Notes: generated from the letters alone by a model not told the origin. A DNA stretch of 64,000 nt from Candidatus Latescibacterota bacterium (GCA_965197905.1 CBDAOB010000005.1:1792001-1856000), one strand, 5' to 3'; counted from the first letter of the stretch, positions 33,785 to 62,050 are shown. A program made the numbers and translations.

Positions 33785-33943
33785 CCCGTCAAGACTCGAA
33801 ACAAGCTAGGTCGAAGAATCCGTGCATCTTGTAATACGCCGCAACGGTCCACGCGAGGACACTGCAGCGCACGGCGATTAGCACCAGGCTCTTCCACATT
33901 CTGGAAACGTACCTGTCCGTCGCACTTTCCAAGCACCGCGAAG

Positions 33944-35035: not shown

Positions 35036-35244
35036 AGTTCGACGGACCGCCCGACAACGAGTTTGGCGCGAGAATATCCGGCTTTTAGCCGTGCAGTTGT
35101 AACAATCGAGAGGGGAACCAGATTCAAGGGATGTGGATTAAAAGCGATTCGAAATATCGTGTAATCGGTGGGAGTCGGACGACTCGGAAAATGAGAGCAG
35201 AGCATGTCGATACGACTCCCGTTCAACCCATCAAAAAGCAAATA

Positions 35245-38348: not shown

Positions 38349-39293
38349 TCAACTGCTTTCCTCCATGTCATATAACATGGCAAAAAGAAGAAATTGGATT
38401 CCCATAATGATCATCAACGCGCAGACAACGGAACGCGGCCCGCTTACACCAACTCCAACCAACTGCTGGTAGGCCAAAAACACACCGAAACCGACCCCGA
38501 GCGGAAGCAAGAGCAACCCGAACAAGTAAAAAAAGAACAGGGGATGGAAATCCCTGATTAGATACTTGCTAAACAGGCGCCAGAAGAACCCATGGACCAA
38601 CATAGGGGCCACGCGGAGGGCGTAACTTCCTCCCTTTATCTGCGACTGCCGCTCTCCCTGCAGATAGATCGCGCGCCTGGGCACATCCAACACCTTAAGC
38701 CCATAGGCATTCAGCCGAACCAAAAAATCCATTGGATAGCCATACCCCTTCCAGGCTTTGTTCCAATCGATCAGATCGACTCCTCTCTTCGTAATAGCCG
38801 TGAATCCGTCCACCACGTCGTAGACCTTGTAATATCCAGACGCGACCTTCGTCATAATTGAGATCAATGCATTGGGGAAGAACCGGGTCCAGGGCATGTC
38901 CTCCAAGCCCACCTCCGGCATCATAAAACGATTGCCTTTGGTATAATCTGCTCGGCCGTCGACGATAGGATCCAGAAGATCGCCGATTTGTTCCATGGGC
39001 ATCTGGTTGTCCCCACCTACCACAACGGTTACATCATGTTCCTGCTTACTGGATTCCAGGTAACCGGTAATGATGGACTGTCCGACCCCCTGGTTTTTCT
39101 CGTGCTGTAGAAGTCGAATGCGGTCATCCCCGCGGCTCTTCTCCGCAACGATCGAGGTCGTTTGGTCGCTGCTGCAGTCGTCAACAACAAATACCGCATC
39201 GATAAGACCCGGCACTGCTTCCAGAGTGGGCCCGATGAGCCGCTCCTCGTTGTAAGCCGGTATTACGAGTGAGATTTTTTTCCCTCGGTACAC
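38349..39293 (-). CDS. GT2 glycosyltransferase, DPM1/polyprenol-phosphate glycosyltransferase-like, with two C-terminal TM helices
   Basis: VIPAYNEE, VVDDCSSD, NQGVG, KGNRF, two terminal hydrophobic helices. Confidence 0.8.
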   Translation of the reverse strand: MYRGKKISLVIPAYNEERLIGPTLEAVPGLIDAVFVVDDCSSDQTTSIVAEKSRGDDRIRLLQHEKNQGVGQSIITGYLESSKQEHDVTVVVGGDNQMPMEQIGDLLDPIVDGRADYTKGNRFMMPEVGLEDMPWTRFFPNALISIMTKVASGYYKVYDVVDGFTAITKRGVDLIDWNKAWKGYGYPMDFLVRLNAYGLKVLDVPRRAIYLQGERQSQIKGGSYALRVAPMLVHGFFWRLFSKYLIRDFHPLFFFYLFGLLLLPLGVGFGVFLAYQQLVGVGVSGPRSVVCALMIIMGIQFLLFAMLYDMEESS

Positions 39294-39303
39294 GTCGCCC
39301 TCG

Positions 39304-40334
39304 CTAGTTCAGGTCGATGAGCGCTCCGCCGCTCTCCAGAGATTTGCTGGCCGCTTCCAGAATGCGCACAACCCGTAATCCGCTCTCGCCGTTCGTTCGG
39401 GGGTCCCGATTGTTTGCAACGCATGCCAGAAATTCCGCGCATTCTACCCTGAGCGGCTCCACGAAGTCAATCCTAGGTATCAGCACATCCCCGGCGCGCT
39501 GGATCAATTGAAATTTTCCGAAGGTGTCGAACTCCCCCAGCGATCCGCCTATATGCCGCCGATCGATACCCTTGTCGAAGAGTTGAATCTTGGCATCGGC
39601 GCTCGAATCATCGTACACCACCATTTTCTCGCTGCCGACCACCGTCGTGCGCCTCACTTTGCCCGGGTCCAACCAGCTGACGTGAATGTGCGCCGCAACT
39701 CCACTGGCAAACTCCAGGTTTAGGTAAACCACGTCCTCAACGCCCTTCTGAAGATAGGTATAGCCGCGGGCGTTTACCGCGACCGGCATCCCCTTGAGCC
39801 ATTTCAGGGCGATGGATATATCATGAGGAGCGAGATTCCACATCGCATTCACATCCTGGCGCACGATACCGAGATTGAGCCTCTGGGAATAGATGTAGTA
39901 GAGTTCTCCGAGCTCTTGCTTCTCTATATAGTCCGCGATGCGCTCCACCGCCGCGTTGTATTCGAAGGTGTGCCCAACCATAAGCACCGTCCCTCGGTTC
40001 TGCGCCAATTCGATCAGCTGCTCGCACTGCGAAACGGTTCTGGCGAGCGGCTTCTCTATGAACACGGATCTGCCGCTTTCTATAATGGCCTTTCCGAGCT
40101 CGTAGTGAGTATCGGCCGGCGTCGCCAGCGCGATGGCGTCAATCTTGCCGTCTGTGAGCAGATCCTGGAGGCAGTTGGCCAGGCGCAGCAGCGGATAAGA
40201 TCTGCCTATGTTCTCGAGTCGCTTCGGCGATGCGTCTGCCACCGCAACCAGCTCGCACTCGTCTAGAACTCCGAAATTCCGGATCAAGTTGGGACCCAGT
40301 AGCCGGCCCCTACAACCCCGATGCCAATAGTCAT
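39304..40334 (-). CDS. Gfo/Idh/MocA NAD-dependent oxidoreductase (sugar-nucleotide dehydrogenase-like), 1-nt frameshift at 40295-40297
   Basis: MTIGIGVVGAGYW(G)PNLIRNF restored by adding one G; EKPL, VGHTF, PHD motifs. Confidence 0.8.
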
Positions 40335-40360
40335 TTCTTTGTCATTGCGCCTGAAGCGAG

Positions 40361-41137
40361 CTATCCTCTCTTCCGTGCGACCACCAGAACCCCCCTTCCC
40401 CACTGAAAGTGAGAGAATAGCTCATCGAATTGCAACGCCCGCGACACCAGTTGGACCAAGACGCGAGACCGCCCGACCTGCGTATCAACTCTTGTTTCCC
40501 GCTCATCCATGGAAGCTCCCGCCGTGCGTTTGAGCCAGGGGGCGAATAGCAACCTGTGATAGAGTCGCCCAAGAGGGAATCCCCATATCTTGGTACGCTC
40601 GACCACGAATCCGGCATTTTCGAACAATCCAATGAGCCCAGGTTTTGTATATCGTTTTACATGTCGAGCCCAAACATCACTATCGTCCCACAGCGCCGGG
40701 TTGAAAGGAACGCTAACCACACAGGGAGCCCCCACCCTCAAGACCCGGTAAAATTCGGCGACTGCCCGCGCGTCTCCCCCTTGCTCGGGAGTCACGTGCT
40801 CCAACACCTCACCACACACGAGGCCATCGAATTGATCGTCGCCAAAGCTCAACTCCGTCACCGAACCCTGACGGACGCGAAGGGTTTCCTCCAGACCGCT
40901 CCGGGCAGCCACCGTTTGAACGAATTCAACGAACTGAGGTGAATCCTCCACCGCATCGACGTCGTAGCCGCAACGGCATAGGTCGACAGCCAAGCTCCCG
41001 CTCCCGCATCCCGCATCCAAGACGCGACCTCGTGCGACGGCCCGGCGTAACAGCCGCAACAGCAGGCGTTCGCGGAACAGATGCACCGGTCCGCGAATCT
41101 CGCACTCACCCCAATCGGTCGCGGACTCAACTTGCAA
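40361..41137 (-). CDS. Class I SAM-dependent methyltransferase
   Basis: VLDAGCGSG, GEVLEH, SVP...W...D...HVKRY. Confidence 0.85.
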   Translation of the reverse strand: MQVESATDWGECEIRGPVHLFRERLLLRLLRRAVARGRVLDAGCGSGSLAVDLCRCGYDVDAVEDSPQFVEFVQTVAARSGLEETLRVRQGSVTELSFGDDQFDGLVCGEVLEHVTPEQGGDARAVAEFYRVLRVGAPCVVSVPFNPALWDDSDVWARHVKRYTKPGLIGLFENAGFVVERTKIWGFPLGRLYHRLLFAPWLKRTAGASMDERETRVDTQVGRSRVLVQLVSRALQFDELFSHFQWGRGVLVVARKRG

Positions 41138-42272
41138 GCCGATGCTCCAGAACCGGCATCAGGTGTCTTCCAATCGCCGCCGGTGTCCCGCACGACTGAT
41201 ACCGTTGGTACCCCGAGTTGGCAATACGAGCCAAGAGCGTGCGGTCAGCGTGAAGTCTGGTAATTGATCTGGCGAGATCGGCCCCGTCCGGAGCGCACAA
41301 TAGCGCGGTATCTCCATCCTGCAGGAATTCCCGAATGGCCGGCGAATCCCTGGTAACTACTGCTTTGCGCAGGGCGATTGCGCCGAAAACCTTATACGGG
41401 ATGACCCGCGCCGCTTTTGCCGTGCTTCCGAATATACCCAAGCAGAGGTCGGCAGAGCGAATCTGTTCGACCAGCTCACGAGGTCCCATCCACCGGTCGA
41501 TGAGCTCGATATTACACAGCTCTCGGGCTCTGGCTTCCATCGACTCAAAAAGCTGTCCTCGGCCAATCAGGGTAAATTGGATCTCACGTTCATGCAGGAG
41601 TCGAGTAGCCGCATCGAGGATCACGTCGACGCCATGCAACGGCACGTAGGTGCCGTAAAACAGAACTCGAAACGATCCGCAACTCTGGCCCGCCGATTCA
41701 TGGGGAGGCGGTTCGTATTCGTGAAATTCATGCCCCACGAAACTACGCTGAAACTTGCCTTCCGGCAGTCCAAACAACTGGGCGTAGTAGCGGATCTGTT
41801 CCCGAGTGTCCACGAGCACTAGATCGGCTGCTCGAAAAGCCATCTGGTCGATCGCCTTCAGTAGAACCGCCCGCCAACTTCCGGGAGCTACCAGCGCGCG
41901 ATCGACGGCCATCGTATCGTATAGCGAAATGAAGCTCACCAAAACCATCAAACGGCCACTGAACAGATTCAACAAGCGCCCTATAAGAATCTCCAAGAAC
42001 CCGGGATATCCCACAATCACGCATTGGTGTGACCTTGCCCGACCGTACTTGCGAACGAGGGAGACATACGTCTGCAACGCTCGCCATCCCATTCGCGCGA
42101 AATCTCGCCAGTGCCAGCGACCTGGTCCATCGTGAAGAAAACCCTCCCACAGTGATTCGCGGCACTCCTCGACGTCGCAACCCGCCTCGCGTAGTCCCTT
42201 GAGCAGAAACCGGTTGACCGGATACCCCGGATCGGTTTTGTACATCCCGAAGAAACAGATCTCCATGCTCAC
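41127..42272 (-). CDS. Glycosyltransferase family 4
   Basis: FYGTYVPLHG, ADLCLGIFG...VIPYK; same subfamily as the GT domain at 31204-33006. Confidence 0.85.
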   Translation of the reverse strand: MSMEICFFGMYKTDPGYPVNRFLLKGLREAGCDVEECRESLWEGFLHDGPGRWHWRDFARMGWRALQTYVSLVRKYGRARSHQCVIVGYPGFLEILIGRLLNLFSGRLMVLVSFISLYDTMAVDRALVAPGSWRAVLLKAIDQMAFRAADLVLVDTREQIRYYAQLFGLPEGKFQRSFVGHEFHEYEPPPHESAGQSCGSFRVLFYGTYVPLHGVDVILDAATRLLHEREIQFTLIGRGQLFESMEARARELCNIELIDRWMGPRELVEQIRSADLCLGIFGSTAKAARVIPYKVFGAIALRKAVVTRDSPAIREFLQDGDTALLCAPDGADLARSITRLHADRTLLARIANSGYQRYQSCGTPAAIGRHLMPVLEHRLAS

Positions 42273-43156
42273 GATTCATCCGAACGTTCAAAGCGCATTT
42301 GCGCCACTTGCTCCGCAATGAGACCCATCATGAAAATCTGCACCGATGTAGTGAATAGCAGCATCGACATGTTTGTGAACCGGTGGCTGTTCCAATAGGT
42401 GTAGCCGTAATAACCGAGTCCCATAAGGAAGACGTAGACGCTGACCGGCAGGAAGATTCGCAGGGGAGAAAACAGCATGCAGATCTTCATGATAACCAGA
42501 AAGAATTTGGTCCCGTCAGAAAATAATCTGATCTTGCTATTGCCGCTTCTCTTCGCCGCCTTGATCGGGATGTAGCTGACGCTGAATCCCGCCCGCATCA
42601 GGCACAAGGTGATGGTGGTTGGATAGGAGAAACCGTTGGGCAGGAGACTCAAGAATCTCCATGCCACCTCGCGGCGAATCGCTCGAAACCCGGAGGTCAA
42701 ATCGGCAATCTTCTGTCCCGTTACGTAGGTGGCGAACCTGTTGTAGATCGAATTTGCCACACTGCGGTGCCACCCCGCCTGACTGCCTCGTCCCCGGGCT
42801 CCTACAACCATGTCGAACCTTCTACATCCTTCGACAAACCGCGGAATGTCAGCCGGGTCGTGCTGTCCATCCCCGTCCATGAGGATGACGATCTCCCCGC
42901 AGGCCTGTCGGATACCGGTTTTGACCGCCGCTCCGTTTCCTAGATTGTACGGATGCTGAACGACGCGAATGAGCGGATCCACCGCTTTTGCTGCCGCCGC
43001 GGTTCCATCCGTTGACCCGTCGTCAACCACCAGGAGTTCCCAGCCGCCTTCGAGTTGTTTGAGTTGAGCGAGAATAGAGCCCAGCACCGAAGCTATTTGA
43101 CCCGCTTCATTGTAGGCAGGCACAACGATGCTAACGTTGACCGCTGAGCCTCCCAC
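42269..43156 (-). CDS. GT2 glycosyltransferase, DPM1/polyprenol-phosphate sugar synthase-like, with two C-terminal TM helices
   Basis: VVPAYNEA, VVDDGSTD, MDGDGQH (DxD), DLTSGFR. GTG start at 43156 shares one base with the HNH stop. Confidence 0.85.
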   Translation of the reverse strand: MGGSAVNVSIVVPAYNEAGQIASVLGSILAQLKQLEGGWELLVVDDGSTDGTAAAAKAVDPLIRVVQHPYNLGNGAAVKTGIRQACGEIVILMDGDGQHDPADIPRFVEGCRRFDMVVGARGRGSQAGWHRSVANSIYNRFATYVTGQKIADLTSGFRAIRREVAWRFLSLLPNGFSYPTTITLCLMRAGFSVSYIPIKAAKRSGNSKIRLFSDGTKFFLVIMKICMLFSPLRIFLPVSVYVFLMGLGYYGYTYWNSHRFTNMSMLLFTTSVQIFMMGLIAEQVAQMRFERSDES

Positions 43157-43665
43157 TAGGTTTCGGCCTGGGTCGCAGCGCGCGTCAGAAGAGGAAGCTC
43201 TTCCTGGAGATGGAACTCTGCCCTCCTGTGACAGGAAGGGCAAAGTGAAACGAGATGCTCGAGATTGTTCGCTCCGAGGTTCGATTCGAAGCTGCCATAG
43301 GGTATAGCATGGTGAACATCGAGCTTTCTGCCCAACGTTTCCTCGGTCACGCCGCATTTTCGGCAGGAGAAGTTATCTCGTTCGCGAGTAGCTAAGGATT
43401 GAATCTTCCAATTACCCCCTCTACTGTACCGCACCCCGGATGCACCTAAATCTGCGTCCGGTCGCTCGCTTGCCCAGGACCGCCGACATTTGGGGCCGCA
43501 GAACATCACACTGAGCTTCTTCGCCATGAACCAATCTGGGACTTCGATGCGGGTGCTGCAGTGAGCACACGCCAGCGTTGACCTATCACCAGAGTCTATT
43601 GGTGTAAGGTGACCGCCGCCAAATTCGAGATTAAGCTGGGAACCATCCGGTTTTTTCGGGGCCAT
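43156..43665 (-). CDS. HNH endonuclease with N-terminal Zn-finger
   Basis: CAHC...FCGPKC, RERDNFSCRKCG, LDVHHAIP, NNLEHLVSLCPSCH. Confidence 0.8.
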   Translation of the reverse strand: MAPKKPDGSQLNLEFGGGHLTPIDSGDRSTLACAHCSTRIEVPDWFMAKKLSVMFCGPKCRRSWASERPDADLGASGVRYSRGGNWKIQSLATRERDNFSCRKCGVTEETLGRKLDVHHAIPYGSFESNLGANNLEHLVSLCPSCHRRAEFHLQEELPLLTRAATQAET

Positions 43666-43744: not shown

Positions 43745-44149
43745 TCAGTCGCTCGTAAGGGTGAAATCGACGTCCAAGGTATCGCGTACGGTGCGCGCCT
43801 GCGCCACCACCTCCCCGCGCCGGGATCGGCCGTCGCCGGGACTCTGCAGGAAGGCGATCGCCAGGCCGTCGAGGGTGATGGCGCTTGAGGTTATCGTACC
43901 TACGGTGGTTGCGAACACTACGACGGTGCTATCCTGAACCGGGCGGGTTCCCTCCCTGATGGTTGCCCAGATCTCCGAAACGGCCTCGCTGTCCTCAACC
44001 GAAAGCCGGTCTGGAAAGGCGGCGAGCTCGATGGTGAGGTTCTTGTCCTTTGAGCTGGTTGGTGCTACCGAGAAGGCGCACTGGCCGGCGGCGAGCGCAA
44101 TGGCGGCCATGAGCGCAAGGTTCGCGAGAGCTCTGATCTTTCGATTCAC
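43745..44149 (-). CDS. Small exported Ig-like (invasin/Big_1-like) protein, possible lipoprotein
   Basis: Hydrophobic signal ending AAGQC; VVFATTVGTITSSAITLDGLA beta-sandwich pattern; GTGA coupling to the upstream gene. Confidence 0.55.
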   Translation of the reverse strand: MNRKIRALANLALMAAIALAAGQCAFSVAPTSSKDKNLTIELAAFPDRLSVEDSEAVSEIWATIREGTRPVQDSTVVVFATTVGTITSSAITLDGLAIAFLQSPGDGRSRRGEVVAQARTVRDTLDVDFTLTSD

Positions 44150-45630
44150 GGCAGAAAATCCGGTGGAGTCCACGAGAAGCGCTCGGCCATGCTTGCCAGC
44201 ATGTTGCCCGCGACATCCTCGAGGGCTGAGTTTTGTATATCCGACAATTCGCGCGCCGAAGCGGTCGCAGTAATGTTGCGGCGATCGACGGGGAGCAACC
44301 TCACGCGCTTGCGGGCCCGGCCGACGCCGTCGATAGTAGCGGTAAACGCCTCCATCTCCTCCCCTTCCGGGCCGAAGAATTCCATAACTCGGAACCGGAG
44401 TCTGACATCGACCCTGGTCTCTGGCAGCTCGACCAAGTAGGGTAGGTGAATACCGGCAAATCGTTTGATTTCGTAGTCCAGCACCTCCCCCGAAACCACC
44501 ACATCCACACCTAGCTTTCGCGCCAGATCCCGCGCCAACAGCGGTGATACTCCCCCTTTTCGGGGCAAACCGGAGAACCGAGCCAGGTCCACCACCTCGA
44601 GACTGTCGTGGGGAGCGAGCTCCGTTTTGATCTTTGCTACCAGTCGCGGCCCGGCATCGTATTCCTCGAACCCTTCGAAGTCGAGGATGGCGATGCGCAA
44701 GACCTTCTCCGGCTCGTACAGACGTTTTATTGGAGCCGGCGGAATATAGAGTGTATGCCGCGTCCCCAACTTGCGGCGAAAACCGTGCATGCGCACCCCG
44801 AAGGTAAAAGCACCCTTGGTGGGGTGATCCAAGAATCCGATCTCCCGGTTCAATTCCAGTTGGATGCCGCGAAACAACCGAATCCGCGTGCCGAATTTCA
44901 ACGCGCCAGACGCACGAGACTCCTGGGTAAACGAAACGCGAGCCTGGTACTCCACGTTGAAGCTGGCGCGATTTTGACGGCCAACCTCGATGCCGAGACC
45001 GTACACGAGCTGCGAAAGGACCTCCAAATTCCCCGACCGGAAGAATCCGCCGTTGATGTAGAGCGACAGCCTGCGAAAATGGAGGTCAACCAGATATTGC
45101 AGCCCCAAGTCCACCGACTCCGAGCTGAACGGACGGATGCCTCCCACCTTGTCCAGGGCATGTTCCCCCTTGTATCCCAAGGGTAAAGTGAACAAGAGTT
45201 GAAAGGCCGAATGGGAGCTCGACGGCACCTTGGTCTGTCTCGCGTACTTGATCCCGACTACCGGATCCCCGGTGCCGTACTTGTTGAGCCCGCCCGCTGA
45301 ATCTAGAAGGAACGGCACCAAAAAACTTATATCGATGGCGGGACTGAACCCGAAGGCATACCCATAGTTTCCCGTGTAGATGCTCCCCTGCCCCAGCTCG
45401 GGGATCGTAAGACCCACCGATCGATTAAGGGCGCGGACGCGGAATCGGCCCTTCCCCAACGGCTCGGCGCTGTGAATCATGTCCAGGCCCTGGCCGAGAG
45501 GAACGCTGATGGCCGAATTCTGAGGTCGGCGCAAAAGGTTCAGATCTTGAGCCGTTACTGGAGTATTCGCCATGGCCGCAAACGAAAACGCCGCCAGTAA
45601 GATAGCCCCGTATGATTTTTCGTTTGCCAC
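44146..45630 (-). CDS. Exported protein: putative outer-membrane beta-barrel plus CsgG/TolB-N-like C-terminal domain
   Basis: Signal peptide, amphipathic beta-strand pattern (YGLGIEVG, FTFGVRM), C-terminal RIAILDFEG...ARKLGVDVVVSGEVLDY. Confidence 0.5.
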   Translation of the reverse strand: MANEKSYGAILLAAFSFAAMANTPVTAQDLNLLRRPQNSAISVPLGQGLDMIHSAEPLGKGRFRVRALNRSVGLTIPELGQGSIYTGNYGYAFGFSPAIDISFLVPFLLDSAGGLNKYGTGDPVVGIKYARQTKVPSSSHSAFQLLFTLPLGYKGEHALDKVGGIRPFSSESVDLGLQYLVDLHFRRLSLYINGGFFRSGNLEVLSQLVYGLGIEVGRQNRASFNVEYQARVSFTQESRASGALKFGTRIRLFRGIQLELNREIGFLDHPTKGAFTFGVRMHGFRRKLGTRHTLYIPPAPIKRLYEPEKVLRIAILDFEGFEEYDAGPRLVAKIKTELAPHDSLEVVDLARFSGLPRKGGVSPLLARDLARKLGVDVVVSGEVLDYEIKRFAGIHLPYLVELPETRVDVRLRFRVMEFFGPEGEEMEAFTATIDGVGRARKRVRLLPVDRRNITATASARELSDIQNSALEDVAGNMLASMAERFSWTPPDFLP

Positions 45631-45634
45631 TCTT

Positions 45635-46336
45635 CTACAACCTGGTCGACGACTCTTGAAGGAGCGAGGTCGCTTCTTCGTTTATGTTTTGCAGCAGGTG
45701 CCCCGGATCGCGAAACTGGAACTGGCCGCGAATCAGGCGCAGCTGCGCCGAGGCGTTGTTTGGATCTGGTCTATCCAGGGCGCTGTAGCGCCCCAGCTGG
45801 AAATACGACTCTGCCAGCAGGATACGGACGTGTCGGGAATCGAAGTTGTCGTGGGAGAGATTCCGCCCATCTTCATCCAGTCGAGCCCGCGAGTCGTAGT
45901 CAGGATCGATCTCTAAAGCCGTAATAGCGAACTGGATCGCGTCGCTGAACTGTTGCAGGGCGTGAGCCACGCCCGCCCGCCCGACCCAGGCATCGGTGTT
46001 CCGGGAATCGAGCTGCAATGCTTGCCTGAAGGCCAGATCGGATTTTTCCAGGTCTTGCTGTTTGAAGAAAGACCACGCGATGCCGCTATGCGCTTCTGAC
46101 TTGATCTGGTTCTTGACACCTTCCGCCCCCTCCAATAGGTCGGCCTGTTCGAGGGTCTGAGTAAAACCGTCGATGGCTGCGGCGTAGTTCCCGGTGTTGT
46201 AAGGACTCCAATCTGCCGGCAGTCTGTCCCGCAGTTTGTCCTCTTGTCGTTTTATTTCAGTAGGGCCAAGTCCGTTGCCGCCCCCGCACCCCGATTGCAA
46301 CAGGATTGCCGCGCCGATGAGCGCGATAAACTTCAT
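45635..46336 (-). CDS. TPR-containing lipoprotein
   Basis: MKFIALIGAAILLQSG-C lipobox-like signal; TPR-like helices (EAHSGIAW, DAWVGRAG, LAESYFQLG). Confidence 0.7.
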   Translation of the reverse strand: MKFIALIGAAILLQSGCGGGNGLGPTEIKRQEDKLRDRLPADWSPYNTGNYAAAIDGFTQTLEQADLLEGAEGVKNQIKSEAHSGIAWSFFKQQDLEKSDLAFRQALQLDSRNTDAWVGRAGVAHALQQFSDAIQFAITALEIDPDYDSRARLDEDGRNLSHDNFDSRHVRILLAESYFQLGRYSALDRPDPNNASAQLRLIRGQFQFRDPGHLLQNINEEATSLLQESSTRL

Positions 46337-46365
46337 ATTGTTTCCCATAGATGACCTCTTTGGAC

Positions 46366-49274
46366 TCATTTCAACAACATCATGGAACGCGACAAGATTC
46401 GATTTCCTGACTCCAACCTGTAGAAGTAGATGCCGCTGCTCACCGTGCCACCGCTCTCGTCTCGCGCATCCCATTGCAGCTCATGCCGACCAGCCGATAC
46501 CTCTCTGGCGAGCAACTGACGTACCAGCTGACCCGATATGTTATAAATAGCGAGTCGCACGGATCTTTCCTCGGGTACAGCCAGGGAACGTCCTGTTTGC
46601 CGCGGCGCCCGATACCGGTGATGTTTCCTGTAGCATTAAGTTGAGCTTCGATACTCCACTGGATGGCCGAGTCCGGATGGGAGACGCGATCGAGAATGAA
46701 CTTATTGAGACTGTCTTCGTGGGACGTGCCGGCAACGAACTGAACGTCGGGCAGTGGCAACAAGCGGAGGACCTCGCTCTCGCCGAATACGCGGATGTGC
46801 GCCGTCTCCGTATTGCTATTTCCCAGGCTGTCCCTGGCCGTGAAGGCTACCGTATCAGTACCCGAGCTAACACCGAAGAACTGCACGATGTTCCCTTCGA
46901 TAATCGCGGGGATCGAATGGTCGCCTCCAAGGATGGTGAACTCCCAGGTCAAACTCTCCACCGGGAACTCGGCTGGGGCTTGAACGAAGTTGTCCAGATC
47001 CAGCACCTCGATGAATACTCCCACGGGCACCTCGAGGGTCAGCGGAAACGGACGGATCTGGAAGGAGTCTGAAGGTGGACCGCCCGATCGAATCGTCACG
47101 AGCATGGTATCCTGTGCCGTGATACCCTCCGGCGAGATCACCTGAAAGATTACGGATTCAGTGCGGAAGGTTGCACGGTCACTCACAACGAAGGTGACCA
47201 GGTGCGTAATCGGATCTATGCCGATCTGGAGGTTGCCTTGATCGAAACTGTCCAGGACGCGCCAGCTCATCTCCTGATCGGAGTTGTTCGAGTCGTAATA
47301 GAAGCTATCAAGGTCGATTTCGCTGTGCCGCTGTCCCTGATCCAATATCAGGTCGGGGAGTCCGCCGGCCACAGGCGTTCCATCTGAGGAGTAGATCCTG
47401 AGCTTCAAATCATCCGACTGATTCCCCGGGTCCGAGACAATCAGAACTGCCTCCTCGTAGCCAACGAATTCGAACGGCGAAGCCGCCGAAAGCACGTGAT
47501 TCTCATCGACCTCAAGTACCGTCCTGATGAACGAAGGGAATGCCCAGGCAAGCTCCGAGTCGGCGTTGTCCGGGTCGTCGACGAAGTCGTCCAGATTCTC
47601 TTGAGCCGTATCTCCTCCGGGTATCAGATTGACCTTGATCTCATCGGGAAACACGACCGGTGGCAAAGCCTCCGCGGCGGTTATGAAGATCACCATCGTG
47701 TCGGAGAGTCGTTCGGGATCCACCGGATCCGCTAGTCGAAAGGTGACCCTTCCCAACCCGGAAAAATCTGGGGTGCCGGTGATCGAGATCACCAGGCCGG
47801 CCTCGGTCCGGGTGGTGTCGGTGGCAAAATGCTCTTCCGGGTCATCTACCCAGGACAGCTCGAGGCTGTCCAATGATGTGTCCACGTCCCGTGCAATGTT
47901 GCTCAACAGATAAGAACGGGTCCCTCCCCGGCTAACCTTCGGCTCCCGGTCCTGCAGAATGAACTCCGGCGGGTCTGGAAGCTCGATCACCTCGATGATC
48001 ACGCGCAAAGAATCCAACCCGCGGAAGGCATCGAGCACCACCACCTTAAGCGAGTCGGTTCCAAAGAAATCCTGCCGGGACCATACCAGTAGCTCGTGGG
48101 TGTTCGGGTCATCGTCGGCCCGCACATTTACCGTGTCGGAGAAGGCACCGAACGGCAGCACCGTAAAGTTCAGCTCGCTCTGCGGGTCGATGACGTCCGG
48201 ATCGTCGACAATCTGATCAAGATCTCTGCCGCGAAACGCAACACGCCTGTCCAGAGCTAGACCCGGCGTAAACGGACTGCCGTCCTCGACGATGCGAATC
48301 GTGTCTCGCTTGACCCCATCGGCACCGGGTTGAATCGAAAACACGGGTGGATTGTTCACCACAATATCCGAGAATTCGGTGGTCTTATTAGGCTCCTGAC
48401 CCGGGATGAGTCCCGAAGGTTCCTCGGCGATCCAGATGATCCGCTGGCGCCCCGTCCAGCCGTTCTTCGGGGTCACCTTTACGCGGTTGGTCACGGGCTC
48501 GATCTCCACCGAAAGGCTGTCCTCCAGGAAACTGTCCACAACGGAAGGATCGACGTTGGGAAGCTCGAAGGACCAGCGTATGGAATCTGGAGCGGCAAGG
48601 GTGCTGGAGACGTAGCTCGTCAGCGAGCCAATCTGCAGACTGTCGGCCTGGCCGGGTGAGAGGATCACATCCGGGATGTCTCGCAGTTGCAGCCCGGTAA
48701 CCGTGATTTCCATACCCCGGACGGTGAGGAAGCGAACCTCTTGGCCATCAGGCAGTACTAAACGGGTTTCGCGGACCGGGTTGTCGTCGATATCAATTCG
48801 ACCGTTGACGATGGGACGGACGCAAAGCAGCCGAAACGACGCTATCACGCCTGCTCCACCCCGGGTTCTCTGCCCGGCGGCCCCAACGACAGCGGCATAA
48901 TCCAGCTGCTGACCCTCGAAGTTGGAAGCGGACGGGTCGCTTTCAGGAAGCAGAAGGTTGATCTGCTCGCCTGCACCCTGAAAGAGCGGCCCCTGGAGAA
49001 AAGGCTGGACTCCGACACGCAACTCGGCCCCCTGATCGATTACCTGGAAGGCATCGCTGGGCACCGTTATGAAAAAGGCGACTCCGGACGCCTCCACTCT
49101 GCCCAGGTCACCGAACACCTCGATGGTGATCGTCTGGCCAACCTGGACCGTCGCCCGCGAGGAGTTTCCGCCGGCCTGCTGGAGTCGCAATGTTTGCGCA
49201 CCGGCAGCAGTCCAACTGAGACCGAATAGACCTATGACAAATACGGTCGGGACTAATCTATTTCGCATACTCAT
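46366..49274 (-). CDS. Secreted protein: cohesin-like domain, ~7 cadherin-like Ca-binding Ig repeats, and a T9SS-type C-terminal domain (disrupted near 46570-46620)
   Basis: Signal peptide ending AGAQ; repeats with LDDFVDDPD, NNPPVF, DPPEF. The C-terminal VRLAIYNISGQLVR...SSGIYFYRL...MMLLK is in a different frame (46366-46560). Confidence 0.7.
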
Positions 49275-49534: not shown

Positions 49535-52500
49535 TTATTTCACCAGGGTCATCTTGCGAATCTGCGAGAAGTCGCCGGATTCCAGACTGTAGAAATACAC
49601 TCCGGAGGATACGTCATGACCGGCTTCCGTGGTACCGTTCCACTTCATGCGGTAGGTACCCGCCTTCATCCGCTTGTCCGCCAGCGTCCGGACGGTCTGT
49701 CCGAGCTGGTTGTAGATCCGCAGCTTGACGATGCCCTCGGCGGGAATGTCGAAGCGGATCTCCGTGGACGGATTGAACGGATTCGGGAAGTTCTGATGCA
49801 GTGCTGCCACCTTCGGCAGGGCCGGAGCCTTCTTCACCTGCATCGGAGAGCCACGGAACTCGCTGTTCACCAGGTCACCGGAGATGATCTCCATTTCGCC
49901 CGGATCATCACCCATCGCGACGAAGCGCAAGGTAGCCAGGTTGGCGTTGCCGCTTGCCGACCAGCTTGCTCCAATGCGACCACCGGTCACATCGACGCGA
50001 CCCGGCTGGACGCGATGGAAGAAGAGCGATCCATGCGGGTTCTTGGCAAAGACGTCGCCTGCCGTCGCGGCCTTGTCGCCACCGATCAGCTTAACCCTGT
50101 TCGGATCGAAGCTGACGCTGAGACCGTAGGCCATGACGTCGGTCATGCCGGTGACGTTCAGGTTCACCTCGAACTCGCGGCCGGTCCACCAGGACTCAAC
50201 ATCGCTGAGACCGTTGAGCTCGACCACGGCGTTCTCGTTGTCACCGCTGGCGTAACCCCGCTTGAAGACAGGCGGAGCACCAAAGCCGTCGATACCGAAG
50301 TTCTGGCTTACGAAACCCAGATCGATGGCGTTGATGATGCCGTCGTCGTTGATATCCGATGGCGCCTGGAATCCAGCATCGGCCGGAGTCAGGTTCCACA
50401 GGCTGAAGACGAGGTTCGCGTCAGCAACATCCACCTGGTTGTCGCCCGTCGCATCGCCGCCCTTGAGGAAACCAAACGGCGTCGCCGGAGACAGGTTACC
50501 CAGGTTGTCAGACCCGAAGGTCGGATCGGCGGTCTTGGTCGTCCCGTTGAACAAGTTCAGCGTATCGGTACGACCGGAGATGTAGCCGTCGGTCTTCACC
50601 GTGATCTCGTAGATACCCGGGGGTATCTCCGTGAGGGTGAAGGTCCCGAAGGCATCGCTGACCACGTTGACCGAATCGAGTATCACAACCACGCCCGGAG
50701 CGTTGCCGGTAATGGTGCTGATGTTGCCAACCGCACCGCTGGTGCCACCCGTGACCGTCTCGCCAGTCGAAAACACGCCCGTGAGCGGGGTTCCTACCGT
50801 GAGATTGGGACTGGCAAACGCGGTGACCACGCCGGCTGCGCCGCTGGTCGTACCCGTAGCCGTCTCAGAGGCGGCAAAGGTACCAGTGATACTGGCCAAA
50901 CCTAGCGTTACCGTCGTATTGCCACCGGTCGAATCGAGCGCAACGTCGTTGGCGCGGATGAAACTCTCATCAGTTATATCCTGCGTGCTTCCGATCTCGC
51001 GCAAGTGCACATCCAGGGTGTCGCCAAAATTCGTGCGACCCTGGAGTGGCGCCGTGGCGATCACGCGAGCACGAGGCGTCAGTGTTACGACACCGTCGCG
51101 CGGTGGAGCAGCTATCTGCGTAGTTCCGTTGCGCATTCCGGTGATTCGATTGCCGCCGGAATTCCACGCCAACGTGGTGTCTGCAGGTGCACCGCCCGTG
51201 AAGCGCTTGACCAGGAGTTGCACCGTGGCGGCCACCTGGGAGCTGTCGCCCGCCACGTTGCCGATCACCTCGCCACCGATCCGGCTCTCTACGAAGTTCA
51301 GGTAGAGCCACTGGTCGGTGCCCTGTGTCGTATCGTTCTGCGCGATGGTTGCGGCACCGATGAAGGCGCCGGTCGAATCCTTGAACGGCTGCACACCCGA
51401 CGTAGCCGCATCCTGGTCGATGACCTCGAAGTGCGAACGTGGCACGTTCAGATGGAAAGCCATCAGGTCGATGCTGCTGGCCTGTGAGTTCGTCAAGACC
51501 TGGAAGTCGAGCGTATCCCCCGAGCTTGCGGTGAGAGCTGTGGGCCCGAGCTCAATACTGAAGATCGGGTCAGCCCCCTCGACACGCAGGGCTCCGGGCG
51601 CCTTGGAAAGCACGGCCGACAGAGACTGAGATCCGTTGCCAGTGGCTATCGAATCCACCGTGCCATTGACGAAGATGTCTTCACCGAACTGCGGATTCAT
51701 GCTGGCGGCGACGAAGATGTCGAACTCGGTTGGCGTCCCGATTATCTTGAAGGACGTCGTCTTCGTATCCCACAGGAAGAAATTCTCGTCGCTTTCACGA
51801 ATCCGCTGGATCTTCAGTGAAGTGGAGCCCGTGTAATCCTCGATCTGGGCACCAGCAGCGTTTACGTTCGTGCCGTCCAGGCTATTGATGAGAAACACGT
51901 CACCATTGCCTGCACCAGCATTGGTTTCCAATTGAGTAATTGTGGTGTACTTGTTTTTCGGTGCCGCATAGAGACGCAGGTAGGCGTCATCCGTGCCCGT
52001 GCCATCGTCGATCAGGAAAGCATCCCATTCGAGACGGATCACGTCGCCGTTGATGAGCGTCTGCCCGGACTCGGGCGGCGTCTTCATGGTTACACGTGGC
52101 AACTGGGAAGCAGGGCTCGTACCACTGCCTTGCAGCAGCACGGCACCACCCCCCTGCACCCGCGTGTTACCAAGGGTATCTGCCATGACGGCGTAGACCC
52201 ACGCCGTGTCCACCGTGGAGCCAACCTGGAGATATTCGGATTGTTGGCATTCGACGGGGCCCCGCTTGGGCTGCCCCTGAACGTCTTGGGCAACTCGCCG
52301 GGCGGGTTACGGAAATCCCAGACGAACTGGTCTCCGGCACCCTCGTCGTCCTCGCGGATACCGCCCTGGATCAAGACAGCGTTTCCAGGATTAGTGCCAC
52401 TGGTTGCCACCAGTTGCGTCGAATCGGTCCCAGAGTAATCCACAGTGGTCGGATCGATGCCGGTGTAGTAGAGAGCAATTATGGCATTTCCATCCAGGTC

Positions 52501-55500
52501 GCGATCGGAACGTCCGCGCTGCCATTCGATGGTATACTGGAACTGCGCGCCCGTGCTGATCGGTATGGTCAGGCCCTCCAACGGCGAGGTAAACTCGAAC
52601 GAGGGACCATGCCGCACGGCCAGAGGCTGACTGGAGACACCCACTGCAAAGGTGTCTTCGTCGGCCACAACCGCGTAGAGGAAGTAGGCGCTCTGTGCGA
52701 TAATCGAGTCTTGACCACTACCCTGAGCGGTGACGTCGAAATCGAACTCGATATCTTCGTCGGTGCGCAAGGTATCGGACAACTGCATCTCGGTCGCTCC
52801 CGTCAATGCTAGGGTCTGGTTCGGGAACGTGCCGGTAATTAGAGCATTGGCATTGGTCAACGCGCTCGACGTCGAGAAGAAGAGACGAACCTGAGCATTG
52901 TCGTCATAGTCGACCAATTGGAAATCGATGTTGTACGGATTGGTCTTGGCGGCGACATCGAATTCGCCCGTATCCACCGTATCGGTTGCCACTGGCTCAA
53001 GCGACTTGACGAGCGGAATGTGGCGAACTCGCAAGGCGCCGTCACTTACGGCGAACACGGCTGGATTGACCAGATCGTCACCCACCACGTAGATGAAGTA
53101 GGTGCCATCTGGGACCTTGGTCAGCGCTGCAAAGCCCAGAGCCTGCAACGTTGCACCCGGATCATCCCAGGTGTAGGTCTGCACGTTGGTGCCGGAGGAA
53201 CCTTCGACGAAGTCCGCCGTGCCGCTCGCTGCATTTACAGAGGTGTCATCCTGCTCGTCGACGATTAAGGTCGCAAACGTGCGGATATCCTGGACGTTGC
53301 TCAAACCGTTGTCGGTGTAGAAGTAGAGCTCCATCTGGAGACCCGCTGCCGGCGTGGAAACGTTGTCGTCGGAGTCGAAGAGCACGTACCGAATGCTCTG
53401 GGTCTCGTTGGCGAACCCACCCGCGCCGAGAGTGCTGGCATCCGGTTCCACAACCTGTACCACCGGCGCTACGTTGGCAGCAGCGATGTCTATGTCGGCA
53501 CTCAGCTGGAAGAAGCTTCCCAGAGGCGGCGAGAGGGTTGATACCAGTCCTCTAGCCTGTTGAGTATGAAGTACGTTGGCAACTTGGCCCTGAGCCCCAT
53601 ATATAGGATTTGTGGTTTTTCCTATAAGGTCGATGCTCTGAGAGACGTTAGGGGTCGATGTAGCAGAATTGGATGCCGAGCTCGCGCGAATGACAAACAG
53701 GTTGTCACTGCTACCTGCGTCCAGCACATTCAACTTTACGAGCAGGCCATTCTTATCGGTATCGTCGCCCCACTCGCCGAAGTTGCTGCTTCCATCATCG
53801 TCGGCGAGGCCTTCCCAATTACCGTTGTCATTCTGTGCTTCTACCTGGTTGGACGCTCCCTTGAACACGCCCGTAGCAGAGGCCGGAGTCAGTGATGCCA
53901 CCCCCATGGAGGATAACCCAATGGTCACCCAACGGCCGGTGAGGAATCCACCCGGAGCAGAGGAGGAGCCAGGTGTGGCGCCGCCGATTCCGGATCCATT
54001 CGAATTGTCGGCGACCGTTACTGGAATCATGTTCTCCAGCGACGCAGTTTGGGGGTGTACCGGGTTGTAGGTCAGTATGTACTGGTTTCCCCCTACCGGG
54101 ATCGATCGGTCTTCGAAACTAAGGGCGCGACCGATGACCTTGAAGAACGGCTGCGGCGCTATGCTGCCCATACTCTTGGCCGAATAGCCTCTACCCGAGT
54201 TATCGGCGGCAGCTTGATTGAGAATGTCCGTGCCTGAATTCATAGGCGACCCGCCCACAAAAGAGAGGTAGACGTTGTTGTCGCCCGATCTCATAGAAAT
54301 CTTGGGGGCAAACAGGTCGCGGAACTTGACCCCGACGCCGTCGTCAAAACGGCCCGTACCAGTAGTGTTCATTCCAGTAGCCACAACGGTCGGCAACTCC
54401 CATTCTACGCCGTTGAAACGGCTGTAGTAGAGAGAGTTCGCCTGACCCGAGCTGCCGGCTCCAAAAACCGCAGCGGTCGCAGCCCTCAGTGTTTTTGTGG
54501 AAAGACCACCGGAAAACACGACATGCAGATCGCCCCGCGTCGATAGACGGTCATCGACGACCGCGGCGATCCGGTCCACGAAACCCCAGTGCTGCTCGAT
54601 CTGCCACTTGGAGTTGTTCATGAATAGTTGGCCGGAACTGACAACTTCGCCCGTTATACCCGCTCCTTGCGGGAAAGCGAAGCTCTGCGTAGTCGGCCAG
54701 CCACCGCCGGGTCCGATTACACCGTCGTAGGCGTAGAAGTTGTAAGCGATATTCTCGTCTTCGAAGGTTGTAGCGGCCGAAGCATCGGTGTATTTCCACA
54801 AGGCATATATACGGTCGGGGGTTCGTTGCCGATCAACCACCACCGTGGGGAAGAGATGCACGCCGCGCCCGGCGCCGGCTGCCCCCGTATCGGCGCCTTC
54901 CAAGGATCGGTCGGAGCTGCCCGCTACGTAACCCGCTGCGGGAGATCCACCGAAGTTGGTGTTCGTCATATCGTCGGCGAACGTACCAACCAGGGTACCT
55001 CGCTGACCTTGATCCCATCCACTGGCACCTACCTGATCCCAGAGAGTCGCCGGGACCGATTTGTGCACGATACGGTCGTCAGTGGCGGCGGCGGCGTGGG
55101 TCTGGTACCATACGACATGAAGAACATCGTCGTCGCCCACGGCAATGTCAGGCGTGAGACCGCGGACCGCATCCCGGTCGATGCGGACGCCGCCACGACT
55201 GCTTGTCTGTCCGGTAGATCCGATGGTGACGGCCTGCGCCGAACCTAGCTGCAGACTGTCGTTGTCGATCTTAGCCAGAATGACGTCGTTGGCCACAGAG
55301 AGTGCTGCAACATCCTGCATCTGGCGGTTGTAGACGACAAAAATATCGTCGGTGGAGGTGACGGCCATTCTGGGAAAGCCAGTTTTCCGTGCCGAGACGG
55401 TTGCCGTGTCATTCAAGACAACCGCGTTGTTGGCCGGCAGCCAGGAGCTACCGCCGTCGTTCGAATAGTTAAAATAGATATTGTTGTACGCATTGATGGA

Positions 55501-56136
55501 GCGCCCGCCCGCAATAACTGCAGCGTTTGTGATGGTTTGATTGTCGCGCCCATACCCCCCGAGACCATCCGGAGAATTGTCCATCGCGTAGACTACGCGA
55601 GGATTACCCTTGCTGTTGATGACGATGTCGAGCGTCGAGAACCCGCCCGTTCCGGACAGGTTGGGCGTGAGCATATCGAAACGCAACGTGCCCGATACGG
55701 ATACGGTGTCAGAAAACGTCTTGCCGCCGTCCAGACTCTTAGCATAAACGACGCCGTAGACGGGCGTTGAGGTTGAAACCGAAAAATCCGCGATACCGCG
55801 CTGCTGAACCCAGGCGCGGTGAATGATCCCGTTGTTGTCGATGGCCATGGCCTGATCCATATACGCCGCTTCGCTTGCGGTACTGAAAAAGCCTTGTGCC
55901 TGTTCGACTTTCTGGAAATTGCCAATGACCGGGTAGGTCTCATTGGCCGACTCGCTCAAATCGACAAGAATGCTGATATCCTTGTCGGACGCAAACGAGG
56001 TTTTGGTCGTGCTGTCAGAGGGGGAAAATCCCACTGGCGTCTGATTTTCGAAAACCGGCTGGGCAAAGGCATTCGTACCCAGAGCGATCGCGAAAACGAC
56101 CATCAGCGTTTGAAAAGACTTAAGCCTTAAGCTCAT
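49535..56136 (-). CDS. Giant (~2200 aa) secreted surface/S-layer-like protein with Asp-box region, internal beta-sandwich repeats, cohesin-like domains, dockerin and T9SS-type/FlgD-Ig C-terminal domain (1-nt frameshift near 52230)
   Basis: AGGAG RBS and MSLRLKS...NAFAQ signal; SLDGGKTF and SNDGGSSW Asp-boxes; GDATGDNQVDVAD...SDINDDGIINAIDL dockerin; QNFPNPFNPST...SSGVYFY...KMTLVK. The two ORFs join by one base at NPN(I)LQVGSTVDTAW. Confidence 0.8.
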
Positions 56137-56600
56137 AACCAAGCACTCCTTCCGTGGACACAACTTACAATTGCTGAAAGCGAAAAAGTCTACGACGGCC
56201 CCAGTTGATTTCCCTATCCCCTGTGGGCCCATCATCTATCGACTTACGTGCCCGCCCCCACGGGCACAATTAGTTCAAAAAGTGGTTTTGTGAGACCTTA
56301 CTCACCTCCTGTGCATTTTTCACGATTGATGAAATAACGTGCTGTTTTTCTGTCATTTATGTATATCGCACACACGGTTCTCCCGCGTTGAACGAATCCT
56401 TACTCCTACTTATCGGCAGTGGGTCTTGGGAACTTCAAGATTATTTTGCCCGTTAAGTCGCCGATCCAGTTATCAGGTACTATGCCGTTTTTTAGCATTG
56501 GGCCGCAAATCCGATTCAGTTTCGAGGGTTTGCGGTAATAGCTACCTATATCGGCAGCCCACCCTGATTAGTTGAGCGCCGTCTGCGAATAGCCGCACCC

Positions 56601-57227: not shown

Positions 57228-57253
57228 TTGCACCCGCCAACCGATTGAATAAC

Positions 57254-57287
57254 GCCCGCCTGCTCTTATCGAGCAGCGGGCTTTTTT
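57254..57287 (+). terminator. Rho-independent terminator after rpsT
   Basis: GCCCGCCTGCTC-TTATC-GAGCAGCGGGC followed by TTTTTT. Confidence 0.75.
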
Positions 57288-57289
57288 CT

Positions 57290-58954
57290 ATGAGCCCGAA
57301 CCGCAGACCCGAGGTGTTTCTCATTTTTGTGGTGGCTGCGGTTGTTCTCGTCTATCTCGGCAGCCTCGACAACAGCTTCCATTACGACGACGGCCACTCG
57401 ATCCAGCGCAATCCCCACATTCGAGATCTGGCCAACCTACCGCGTTTTTTCACAGATACGTCGCTCTTCTCCGAAAATCCGGAGTACGCCATGTATCGAC
57501 CGCTGGTGCTGACCTCTCATGCGCTCAATTACGCTTTGGGAGGGCCCGATCCATCGGGGTATATTGCGCTGAACCTCGCTATTCACACCGCAGCTACCGC
57601 GCTCGCTTTCCTTGTCCTCCTTCAGCTGGGGGGAGGGTTGTACGGCGCAACCTTGGGCGCCCTCCTGTTCGGTTTCCACCCGGTTCACAGTGAGGTAATC
57701 AACTTCGTCAGCGCCCGCTCGGAGTCGCTCGCCGCCGGGTTCATGCTGCTCTCGTTTGCGGCTTACATGAGAGCTACTCAATCCGGAGGGTCGAGGATAG
57801 CAGTGTCATCGAAGGGGTACCGAGCCCTCTCCGTTTTGGCCTTCGGCTTGGGGTTGTTGTGCAAGGCGACCGCCATTGCGCTGCCTGCCCTTTTGATCGT
57901 GTATGCGTGGCTCCGTCATCCAAAAGGCTGGAATTGGCGCGACCTGGCTCGAGTCCAGCTCGCCTACTGGGCCGTCACCGCGCTGTATGTGGCAACATAC
58001 CTCTTCTTCTCGTCGCAGAGCGTCGGAAGAGCCGGCGAGGTACGGAGTGCGACGTCCCAAATCGCGACGCAGGCTAAGGCGATCGTCCACTACATTAAAC
58101 TTTCCATAATGCCCACGGAGCTGACCATATATCACCAGTTTTTCATCTCCGATTCGCTCGCAGAATGGGCCCCGTTTCTCGGCCTTCTTGCGGGGCTCAG
58201 CCTCGCGCTAATGTTTGTTGTCTTGTGTAGGACAAACTGGCTGGCCAGCTTCGGTTGCGCCTGGTTTGTCATCACCCTGTTTCCAACGTTAGCAGTGCCT
58301 CTAAACCTGGCCGTGAACGACCACAGACTCTACCTGGCTTTGTTGGGTCCGGTGATCACGTTGACTGCGTTGTGCAGGGATCGTCGCTTCGCCATTTGGG
58401 CAGTAGCGGCCGCCGCCGTCTTCGGCCTCCTGTCCGCCAAACAAGATGTCGTGTGGCAGGATGAGCTGAGCCTTTGGGACCATGCCGCCAAGCGCGCACC
58501 GCTCATGCCCGAAGCGCACTACAATCTGGCGGTTGAATACCACGAGGTGGGAGATCTGCAGATCGCGCGACTTTCATACGAGGCCGCGGTTGGACTTGAT
58601 GCGACCTACGAGGAGGCACAGGCCAATCTGGCTTCGATCTATCGTGCTGCCGGTGAGCTGGAAAAGGCGGAGTCGGCGCTAAAAGCCGCGCTTCAAGCTG
58701 AACCTGATCTTCCAGGAGCTCTCAACAGCCTTGGTTTGCTGCTGATGGACAAGGGGCAGTTAGAGCGTGCCGAGCAGGTTTTTCTGCAGATTCTGGCTTC
58801 GGACCCTGAGGTGGCCGAGGCACATTTCAATTTGGGACTGATCTACCGGGACCAGGGAAAGAAGGATCTGGCCGTTGAATATCTGAAACGAGCCGTAGCT
58901 TTGAAACCGGAACTAAAAACGTCGACCCTGCGAGCTCCGTCAATTCAGCGATAG
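57290..58954 (+). CDS. TMTC-like GT-C glycosyltransferase with short TPR tail, paralog 10
   Basis: FHYDDGHSI, MYRPLV, HSEVINFVSARSE, PLNLAVNDHRLY, ~4 TPRs; start set at ATG 57290. Confidence 0.85.
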   Translation: MSPNRRPEVFLIFVVAAVVLVYLGSLDNSFHYDDGHSIQRNPHIRDLANLPRFFTDTSLFSENPEYAMYRPLVLTSHALNYALGGPDPSGYIALNLAIHTAATALAFLVLLQLGGGLYGATLGALLFGFHPVHSEVINFVSARSESLAAGFMLLSFAAYMRATQSGGSRIAVSSKGYRALSVLAFGLGLLCKATAIALPALLIVYAWLRHPKGWNWRDLARVQLAYWAVTALYVATYLFFSSQSVGRAGEVRSATSQIATQAKAIVHYIKLSIMPTELTIYHQFFISDSLAEWAPFLGLLAGLSLALMFVVLCRTNWLASFGCAWFVITLFPTLAVPLNLAVNDHRLYLALLGPVITLTALCRDRRFAIWAVAAAAVFGLLSAKQDVVWQDELSLWDHAAKRAPLMPEAHYNLAVEYHEVGDLQIARLSYEAAVGLDATYEEAQANLASIYRAAGELEKAESALKAALQAEPDLPGALNSLGLLLMDKGQLERAEQVFLQILASDPEVAEAHFNLGLIYRDQGKKDLAVEYLKRAVALKPELKTSTLRAPSIQR

Positions 58955-62032: not shown

Positions 62033-62050
62033 GTAAGCTCGTCGTCGCAG

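Follow-up and report, generated by a model that had tools for sequence, protein, structure and literature searches.

TMTC1-4 (CAZy family GT105) and cadherins form an enzyme-substrate pair in animals, in which, according to PMC11292533, the TMTCs O-mannosylate B and G strands. Both halves of the pair are known separately from prokaryotes: full-length prokaryotic TMTC homologs are already in print (PMC7801869), as are bacterial cadherin-like domains, and bacterial cadherin-related proteins lack LDRE and DxND (PMC2926784). A further described system, the general O-glycosylation of Bacteroidota, uses the sequon D(S/T)(A/I/L/M/T/V), as stated in PMC10897501. Here, we analyzed a stretch of 64,000 nt (the window) from a Candidatus Latescibacterota bacterium (GCA_965197905.1 CBDAOB010000005.1:1792001-1856000; host genome labelled G000), which encodes a cadherin-like repeat protein in the same gene island as TMTC-like membrane proteins. 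A preliminary description had proposed that the two mirror the animal pair and that such a pairing may exist in bacteria and predate animals. Our literature search, which left most subscription journals outside, turned up no publication describing a TMTC-cadherin pair in bacteria or a D-S/T sequon in Latescibacterota, and none linking the D-S/T statistics of this lineage to Bacteroidota-type O-glycosylation or to a TMEM260-like transferase. We lean, with slightly better than even confidence, toward a reading in which the repeat protein would be an exported cadherin-like rod whose D-S/T sites receive glycans from a transferase common to the whole lineage, while the TMTC-like paralogs of the island would act on the surface layer generally.

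The region 46620-48700 was found to encode six complete repeats of about 100 amino acids (aa), followed by half of another, R7 (aa 195-885 in all), with boundaries set by hand from an alignment. The repeats are acidic (D+E 13-21% vs K+R 3-10%) and share 15-34% identity, 9 of the 21 pairs scoring at z of at least 3 against shuffled sequences, which bears out the acidic tandem repeats noticed earlier. All peptides quoted in the preliminary description were located in the minus-strand open reading frame (ORF): VVNNPPVF at aa 305, ELPDPPEF at 431, DSLKVVV at 407, DTMVIFIT at 525, DTMLVTI at 722 and DTVAFTA at 807. Intact orthologs are mostly 1,300-1,500 aa long and end in a FlgD-Ig/type IX secretion system (T9SS)-like tail; PNPFN occurs within the last 130 aa in 55 of 60 homologs, whose record names point to Candidatus Latescibacterota or Gemmatimonadota metagenome-assembled genomes.

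An AlphaFold2 model of repeats R2-R5, built from 69 sequences, showed four tandem seven-stranded beta-sandwiches (pLDDT 92); R1, R6 and R7 lie outside the model. Foldseek placed animal cadherins at the top (E 8e-19), titin at rank 19 and an Aeromonas RTX adhesin at rank 41, the cadherin matches being tandem-array matches with a root-mean-square deviation (rmsd) near 40 A. With VIA-align, the top match was the dystroglycan cadherin-like domain (Z 10.7, rmsd 2.1, 95 aligned), and Drosophila N-cadherin, the bacterial fucoidanase MfFcnA4 and staphylococcal SraP fell within 1 Z of it (Z 9.9-10.7). Many cadherins matched at Z 8.4-10.6, consistent with tandem cadherin-type beta-sandwiches of about 100 aa. 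A wide structure search agreed with VIA-align and added Rib and S-layer SbsC domains. The repeat profile gave nothing significant against solved structures, the best two matches being cadherins at E 0.49-0.56, and a PDB sequence search with the source repeat protein returned no match.

Motifs were counted over 57 orthologs, i.e., P0002-P0061 (60 proteins) minus three partial ones. The EC linker DxNDNxP was found in none of the 57, DxND anywhere in 9, and LD[RY]E anywhere in the region in only 6; the source protein has no LD[RY]E. The DxD after the B strand supplies Ca2+ ligands of EC domains; it is kept in 56-57 of the orthologs in R2, R3 and R4 and as D-x-D/N in R5, and it does not occur in R1 or R6. 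An N-N-P-P or D-x-P remnant is retained at just two of six junctions, and the earlier likening of VVNNPPVF and ELPDPPEF to the cadherin linker was not upheld. Big_9 scored above its curated cut-off in 9 of 13 orthologs, the source copy staying below (18.1 vs 23.6 bits); FlgD_ig was detected at E <= 1.1e-4 in 13 of 13, tand_rpt_95 was below cut-off in 8 of 8, and the repeat family comprises 19,044 clusters at E <= 0.001. Given the cadherin-like model, the Big_9 family and the lack of EC motifs, the modelled repeats are of cadherin-like fold but are not EC domains; that is, the proposed fold was retained, whereas the EC identity was not. By profile, they belong to the huge Big_9/tandem-95 family. 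The protein shares with the bacterial cadherin-like domains (Big_9 PF17963, Cadherin_5 PF17892, tand_rpt_95 NF012211; CADG/CHDL) the profile matches of its orthologs, the tandem acidic sandwiches of about 100 aa, DxD, N/D-x-P linkers and the absence of LDRE and DxND. It differs from them in its divergent sequence, with the source copy below cut-offs, its heavy and conserved D-S/T-x load, its cohesin-like head and its fixed site in a glycan island. Animal EC domains share the fold; however, the repeat protein is without their Ca2+ motifs, and EC cadherins are membrane receptors, whereas the repeat protein is soluble with a sorting tail.

A stronger reading takes the repeats as genuine EC-like domains carrying mannose on their B and G strands and the pair as ancestral to the animal one. 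The Foldseek ranking would fit, and oomycetes and choanoflagellates are reported to have TMTC homologs as well as true cadherins (PMC7801869 and PMC2926784). However, the linker is absent, no solved cadherin gave a significant sequence match, and single-domain structural matches to cadherins tie with those to bacterial domains; we consider such an ancestral pair very improbable.

Next, we asked where Ser and Thr lie on the sandwiches, with strand letters assigned by us from DSSP in the four modelled repeats. Conserved Ser/Thr was present on the G strand in all four (8/43 positions), on the F strand in all four (7/40) and on the B strand in one (2/20); conserved D-S/T motifs were mostly on F and G strands and loops, rarely on B. 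Two of the quoted Ser/Thr peptides are G strands, one is an F strand and one is an F strand by alignment. The recurring Ser/Thr strands thus hold for the G strand, as in animal TMTC substrates, but the B and G pattern does not, F being as rich as G. All four quoted peptides start with D-S/T-hydrophobic, which is the Bacteroidota sequon; rather than TMTC sites, they are better explained as D-S/T-x sequons, whose excess in other exported proteins is independent of TMTC number.

The motif D[ST][AILVMT] occurred 16 times in aa 195-885 against 4.1 expected, compared with 3 vs 2.6 for E[ST]x. Genome-wide counts were made on 1,887 ORFs (42% of the genome) selected by our own rule, and of the 1,808 that lack an in-frame tail, the repeat protein ranked first for the motif; the genome as a whole is depleted in D-S/T-x (observed/expected (O/E) 0.77-0.88). 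Across the 57 orthologs, 16 D-S/T column pairs were at least 70% conserved vs 3.7 expected, and reversed S/T-D pairs numbered only 2; Ser and Thr interchange at conserved sites (e.g., S422: T33/S24). We rejected the idea that D-S/T is intrinsic to the fold, as most fold relatives showed no excess: with 141 of 142 scored, pooled O/E was 0.87 in the 103 without a tail and 1.25 in the 38 with a tail. Eighteen of these 141 relatives (P0074-P0215) had no D-S/T-x at all where 5-28 were expected, which suggests active avoidance in some lineages.

These counts bear on the possibility that the protein is an ordinary unglycosylated adhesin or scaffold, its D-S/T motifs capping strands and the TMTC-like enzymes modifying the polysaccharide or lipid glycan of the nearby cluster. 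Fold relatives often begin their F strand with G-x-D-S/T, the TMTC array adjoins the glycan genes with a GT4 gene inside it, and among the GT-C matches of an island paralog model are ArnT and arabinosyltransferases alongside protein transferases. However, the excess and conservation at many unrelated positions, the interchange of Ser and Thr, the same excess in helical and propeller proteins and its lack in most fold relatives make this decidedly unlikely.

Two exported proteins that are unrelated to the repeat protein, chosen because they carry the motif in G000, were compared between genomes rich and poor in TMTC-like genes. For the TPR protein, D-S/T-x O/E was 5.6 in 17 TMTC-rich and 6.2 in 8 TMTC-poor genomes; for the propeller protein, the values were 2.95 and 3.4. 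The TMTC-poor genomes showing the excess include G017 and G010, in which no TMTC match was found at E <= 1e-20. Enrichment together with conservation of the sequon was seen in a subset of exported proteins; the N-terminal 1,381 aa of the giant neighbour of the repeat gene were not enriched (8 vs 7.4). Further exported G000 proteins of unrelated folds carried a strong D-S/T-x excess (e.g., 30 vs 11.4 and 20 vs 5.3; Table 1). A TMEM260-like gene (PF11028) was present in 41 of 41 genomes of the lineage and, among 14 controls, only in B. thetaiotaomicron; the G000 copy matches the human TMEM260 structure 9rql at E 2.6e-17, and distant bacterial TMEM260 homologs have been noted (PMC10214176). Since the same D-S/T excess appears in TMTC-poor genomes and the TMEM260-like gene is always present, a system common to the lineage most likely acts on the D-S/T sites, and the TMEM260-like gene would be its best candidate transferase. 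Relative to the Bacteroidota system (PMC10897501), the motif is the same, enriched and conserved in an exported subset and depleted overall, and the TMEM260-like gene is common to this lineage and B. thetaiotaomicron; the source organism belongs to a different phylum-level lineage.

Several observations weigh against the reading that we favour. In 6 of the 8 TMTC-poor genomes, 1-3 TMTC-like matches are still present, and a single such enzyme could serve the D-S/T sites there. The distant repeat homolog from G026 had only 9 D-S/T-x vs 5.3 expected. That all tail-bearing proteins are rich in D-S/T was rejected, with 217 vs 229 expected in 79 G000 proteins (O/E 0.95). The literature search described above turned up no assignment of a D(S/T) transferase. 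Conserved Ser/Thr on the G strand of every modelled repeat, some of it not after Asp, is what a TMTC substrate might show. Finally, as described below, presence of the repeat family goes closely with expansion of the TMTC-like genes, whereas FlgD-tail counts do not follow it (rho 0.36; values of 102 mean at least 102); the idea that TMTC number follows secretome size was not supported by these counts.

The repeat gene lies in an island with a conserved order: TMTC genes, giant protein, repeat protein, three small genes, glycan genes and TMTC array. This order was kept in all five mapped genomes (G015, G024, G021, G008 and G013), as far as contigs reach, and the core order around the repeat gene also in G001 and G002; the middle of the glycan cluster differs between genera. 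The repeats had been described as next to TMTC homologs. Instead, the nearest TMTC-like ORF is 7,809 bp off on the opposite strand, beyond a 6.7-kb gene, and 28.6 kb separate the repeat gene from the end of the nine-gene array; positions no more than 8 kb from a TMTC-like gene make up 2.8% of the genome. Co-occurrence, the check proposed earlier, was run within a family of 25 genomes (G000 included) and was positive: 17 had the repeat family and at least 7 TMTC matches, 1 had repeats with 2 matches, none had at least 7 matches without repeats, and 7 had no repeats and 0-3 matches. These matches should not be read as copy numbers, we chose the threshold of 7 after viewing the data, and kin genomes are not independent. 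The giant-neighbour family occurs in the same 18 of 25 genomes as the repeat family, and the other three of the four repeat-family genes of G000 are 279-743 kb from any TMTC-like gene; therefore, the link of the TMTC-like genes, as these genome comparisons read, is to the island and not to a single repeat gene. In other words, a conserved genomic link and co-occurrence of TMTCs with cadherin-like repeats stand, but the specificity of the pairing does not. At G000:C5:2586139-2601945, two giant-protein paralogs and a repeat-protein paralog occur with no TMTC-like gene, and similar pairs are found in relatives.

The window contains 12 TMTC-like genes, 9 in the array and 3 at 57245-64000. One membrane domain was modelled (pLDDT 91), and GT-C enzymes took ranks 1-34 (E from 1.8e-4, TM 0.4-0.55). 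Seven motifs are tabulated for the human TMTCs (Table 4 of PMC7801869), and among 48 island sequences we found DD of M1 in 48, R-P in 48, R-S-E/D of M3 in 46, Lys of M4 in 48 with its Glu in 13, and E/D-x-R-x-Y of M7 with R and Y in 48. In the same sequences, SHKSYRP of M2 is reduced to Y/F-R-P, the mannose-contact S-H-K-S being absent, and DW of M5 is absent, with W lost and E/D-H instead. PMT_2 matched weakly in 5 of 9 island paralogs, PF08409 (DUF1736) in none of 9 at E <= 10. The identification of the membrane proteins as TMTC homologs was supported by the GT-C fold, the DD, RP, K and ERxxY-type motifs and the TPR tails found among the 12. They share the GT-C and TPR architecture and several motifs with animal TMTC1-4 and differ in having no PF08409 match, a diverged mannose-contact motif and 12 members in one island. 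PDB sequence searches with TMTC membrane profiles gave no relevant match, and a full-length TMTC-like query gave TPR matches only. For an ancestral animal-type pair, retention of M1 and M7 is a point in favour; the missing S-H-K-S and W, the loss of the M4 Glu in most sequences and the lack of PF08409 in the island count against it. The sole G000 gene above the PF08409 cut-off (G000:C4:72052-73869) is TMTC-like, has a long branch and lies far from the island, on contig C4, a contig on which we detected no member of the repeat family.

The TMTC-like paralogs are 32-45% identical to each other. In a quick tree, they cluster by array position across genera and not by genome; therefore, the array is old, and its position-kept members may have distinct roles. 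This would suit another explanation, in which the island paralogs are protein O-glycosyltransferases whose substrates include the cadherin-fold repeats, a functional parallel to animals with or without descent. Individual paralogs would then be devoted to different strands or domains of the repeat protein and its giant neighbour. The kept island order, the co-occurrence, the TPR tails and the conserved G-strand Ser/Thr agree with it, and two island GT2 genes (Pfam) could supply lipid-linked sugar. However, the B-strand pattern is missing, the strongest Ser/Thr signal is D-S/T-x, which is TMTC-independent in other proteins, and three of the four G000 repeat-family genes have no TMTC-like neighbour. 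The array is also at the far end of the glycan genes, and a single island inherited as a block in non-independent kin would yield the same table of co-occurrence. We regard direct TMTC glycosylation as possible but doubtful. A self-contained form, in which about 12 position-conserved transferases each glycosylate strands or domains of neighbouring cadherin-fold and other beta-sandwich proteins atop the D-S/T system, appears unlikely; if true, TMTC glycosylation directed at cadherin-fold domains would exist beyond the eukaryotes. That the animal pair descends from an island system of this kind is highly improbable.

In the reading that we favour, the gene product would be an exported cell-surface protein of a Latescibacterota-type bacterium, with a signal peptide, a cohesin-like head, about eight cadherin-like sandwiches of Big_9/tandem-95/CADG type, further Ig-like domains and a FlgD-Ig/T9SS-like sorting tail, through which it may be exported. 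The conserved DxD and ED probably bind Ca2+ at some junctions and would stiffen the rod. A lineage-wide, Bacteroidota-type system probably O-glycosylates its many D-S/T-x sites in the periplasm, with the TMEM260-like transferase of every relative as the best candidate enzyme. The 12 TMTC-like paralogs, carried in the same inherited surface-glycan island, would most likely transfer lipid-linked sugars in the periplasm onto the surface layer; their acceptors would be the glycans of the island or several of its proteins, not a cadherin-specific partner. The locus is testable, with a conserved island, 12 position-kept TMTC-like paralogs and two surface-protein families of like distribution, and it offers candidate acceptors for a large enzyme family. 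The D-S/T statistics, for their part, point to Bacteroidota-type O-glycosylation in the lineage, with the TMEM260-like gene as transferase candidate. As far as record names show, the organisms are uncultured, which limits direct tests.

The source copy is damaged. Relative to G002, about 1.4 kb is absent (blastn), and this piece was found nowhere else in G000. Owing to the deletion, an inverted piece and a frame shift, what the ORF reads beyond aa 885 does not represent genuine protein, and the C-terminal sorting domain is not in frame. In the 4 examined of 19 listed sequencing runs, contigs from X1 and X3 span the junction, and the intact form was present in X1, X5 and X7. Support from two runs makes an assembly error unlikely, with the caveat that one run may derive from the source sample; the missing piece therefore looks like a strain-level lesion. 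Further genes are split by frameshifts or stops (52090-52213, 11400-13287, 16631-17829 and 35245-37157), probably sequencing indels.

Table 1. Features of the repeat gene and its island, with further G000 loci (positions in the window unless a contig is named).
Feature	Position	Strand	Remarks
Repeat-protein ORF	46440..49274	-	944 aa as read; real protein up to aa 885
Predicted Sec signal peptide, aa 1-26	49197..49274	-	judged by eye from sequence
Cohesin-like N-terminal domain (lead), aa 27-194	48693..49196	-	Atlas PF00963 clusters; scaffoldin matches not significant
Repeat R1, aa 195-307	48354..48692	-	D-S at S212, S231, S253; outside modelled region
Repeat R2, aa 308-431	47982..48353	-	conserved ED 330-331, DxD 358/360; D-S/T at T325, S408, S422
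Repeat R3, aa 432-535	47670..47981	-	DxD 463/465; D-T at T466, T487, T526
Repeat R4, aa 536-630	47385..47669	-	DxD 567/569; domain matched to dystroglycan cadherin-like domain
Repeat R5, aa 631-730	47085..47384	-	D-T at T723, on G strand
Repeat R6, aa 731-831	46782..47084	-	D-S/T at T808, S816; without DxD; outside modelled region
Repeat R7, first half, aa 832-885	46620..46781	-	D-S at S869; truncated by deletion; outside modelled region
Inverted remnant (62 bp) at the ~1.4-kb deletion	46563..46624	no strand	blastn vs G002
Out-of-frame end of FlgD-Ig/T9SS-like C-terminal sorting domain	46366..46560	-	73% identical to aa 1370-1433 of ortholog P0002
Giant exported neighbour, dockerin-like and FlgD-Ig domains	49535..56235	-	one ~2,200-aa gene in relatives; frameshifted near 52,200 here
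Three conserved downstream genes	43745..46342	-	TPR lipoprotein-like (45635-46342), 494-aa exported protein, 142-aa small exported protein
Glycan biosynthesis cluster	18060..43357	-	GT2, GT4, methyltransferases, AsnB-like amidotransferases, deacetylase, radical SAM, CapA-like
Array of 9 TMTC-like GT-C and TPR genes	1..17829	-	one GT4 inside; two split in assembly, one runs off the stretch
TMTC-like gene nearest the repeat gene	57245..58954	+	divergent from giant gene
Two more TMTC-like genes	60023..64000	-	second runs off the stretch; beside cysK-like 59109-60026
Single TMEM260-like gene	G000:C4:378661-381300		PF11028
D-S/T-x-rich exported protein	G000:C5:2239624-2242545		
D-S/T-x-rich exported protein	G000:C4:1525541-1527244		
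D-S/T-x-rich exported protein	G000:C4:241503-245987		
D-S/T-x-rich exported protein	G000:C4:1085425-1090605		
D-S/T-x-rich exported protein	G000:C5:2146718-2150014		

For the cohesin-like head, the nearest named Atlas clusters carry PF00963 (similarity 0.89-0.90), and comparison with the scaffoldin structures 1tyj and 2y3n gave E 0.23-0.26, below significance. Together with the dockerin-like domain of the giant neighbour, this hints at a surface scaffold. The exported proteins at 44146-45630 and 43745-44173 matched no Pfam family and are always directly downstream of the repeat and TPR lipoprotein-like genes. Wzz/Wzc-like and Wza/SLBB-like genes (labelled by eye) lie at G000:C5:1783920-1786817, 5 kb past the TMTC array, with four housekeeping genes (also labelled by eye) between them and the island. 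A small HNH-domain gene (43156-43665), between the surface-protein genes and the first GT2 gene, is kept in most relatives.

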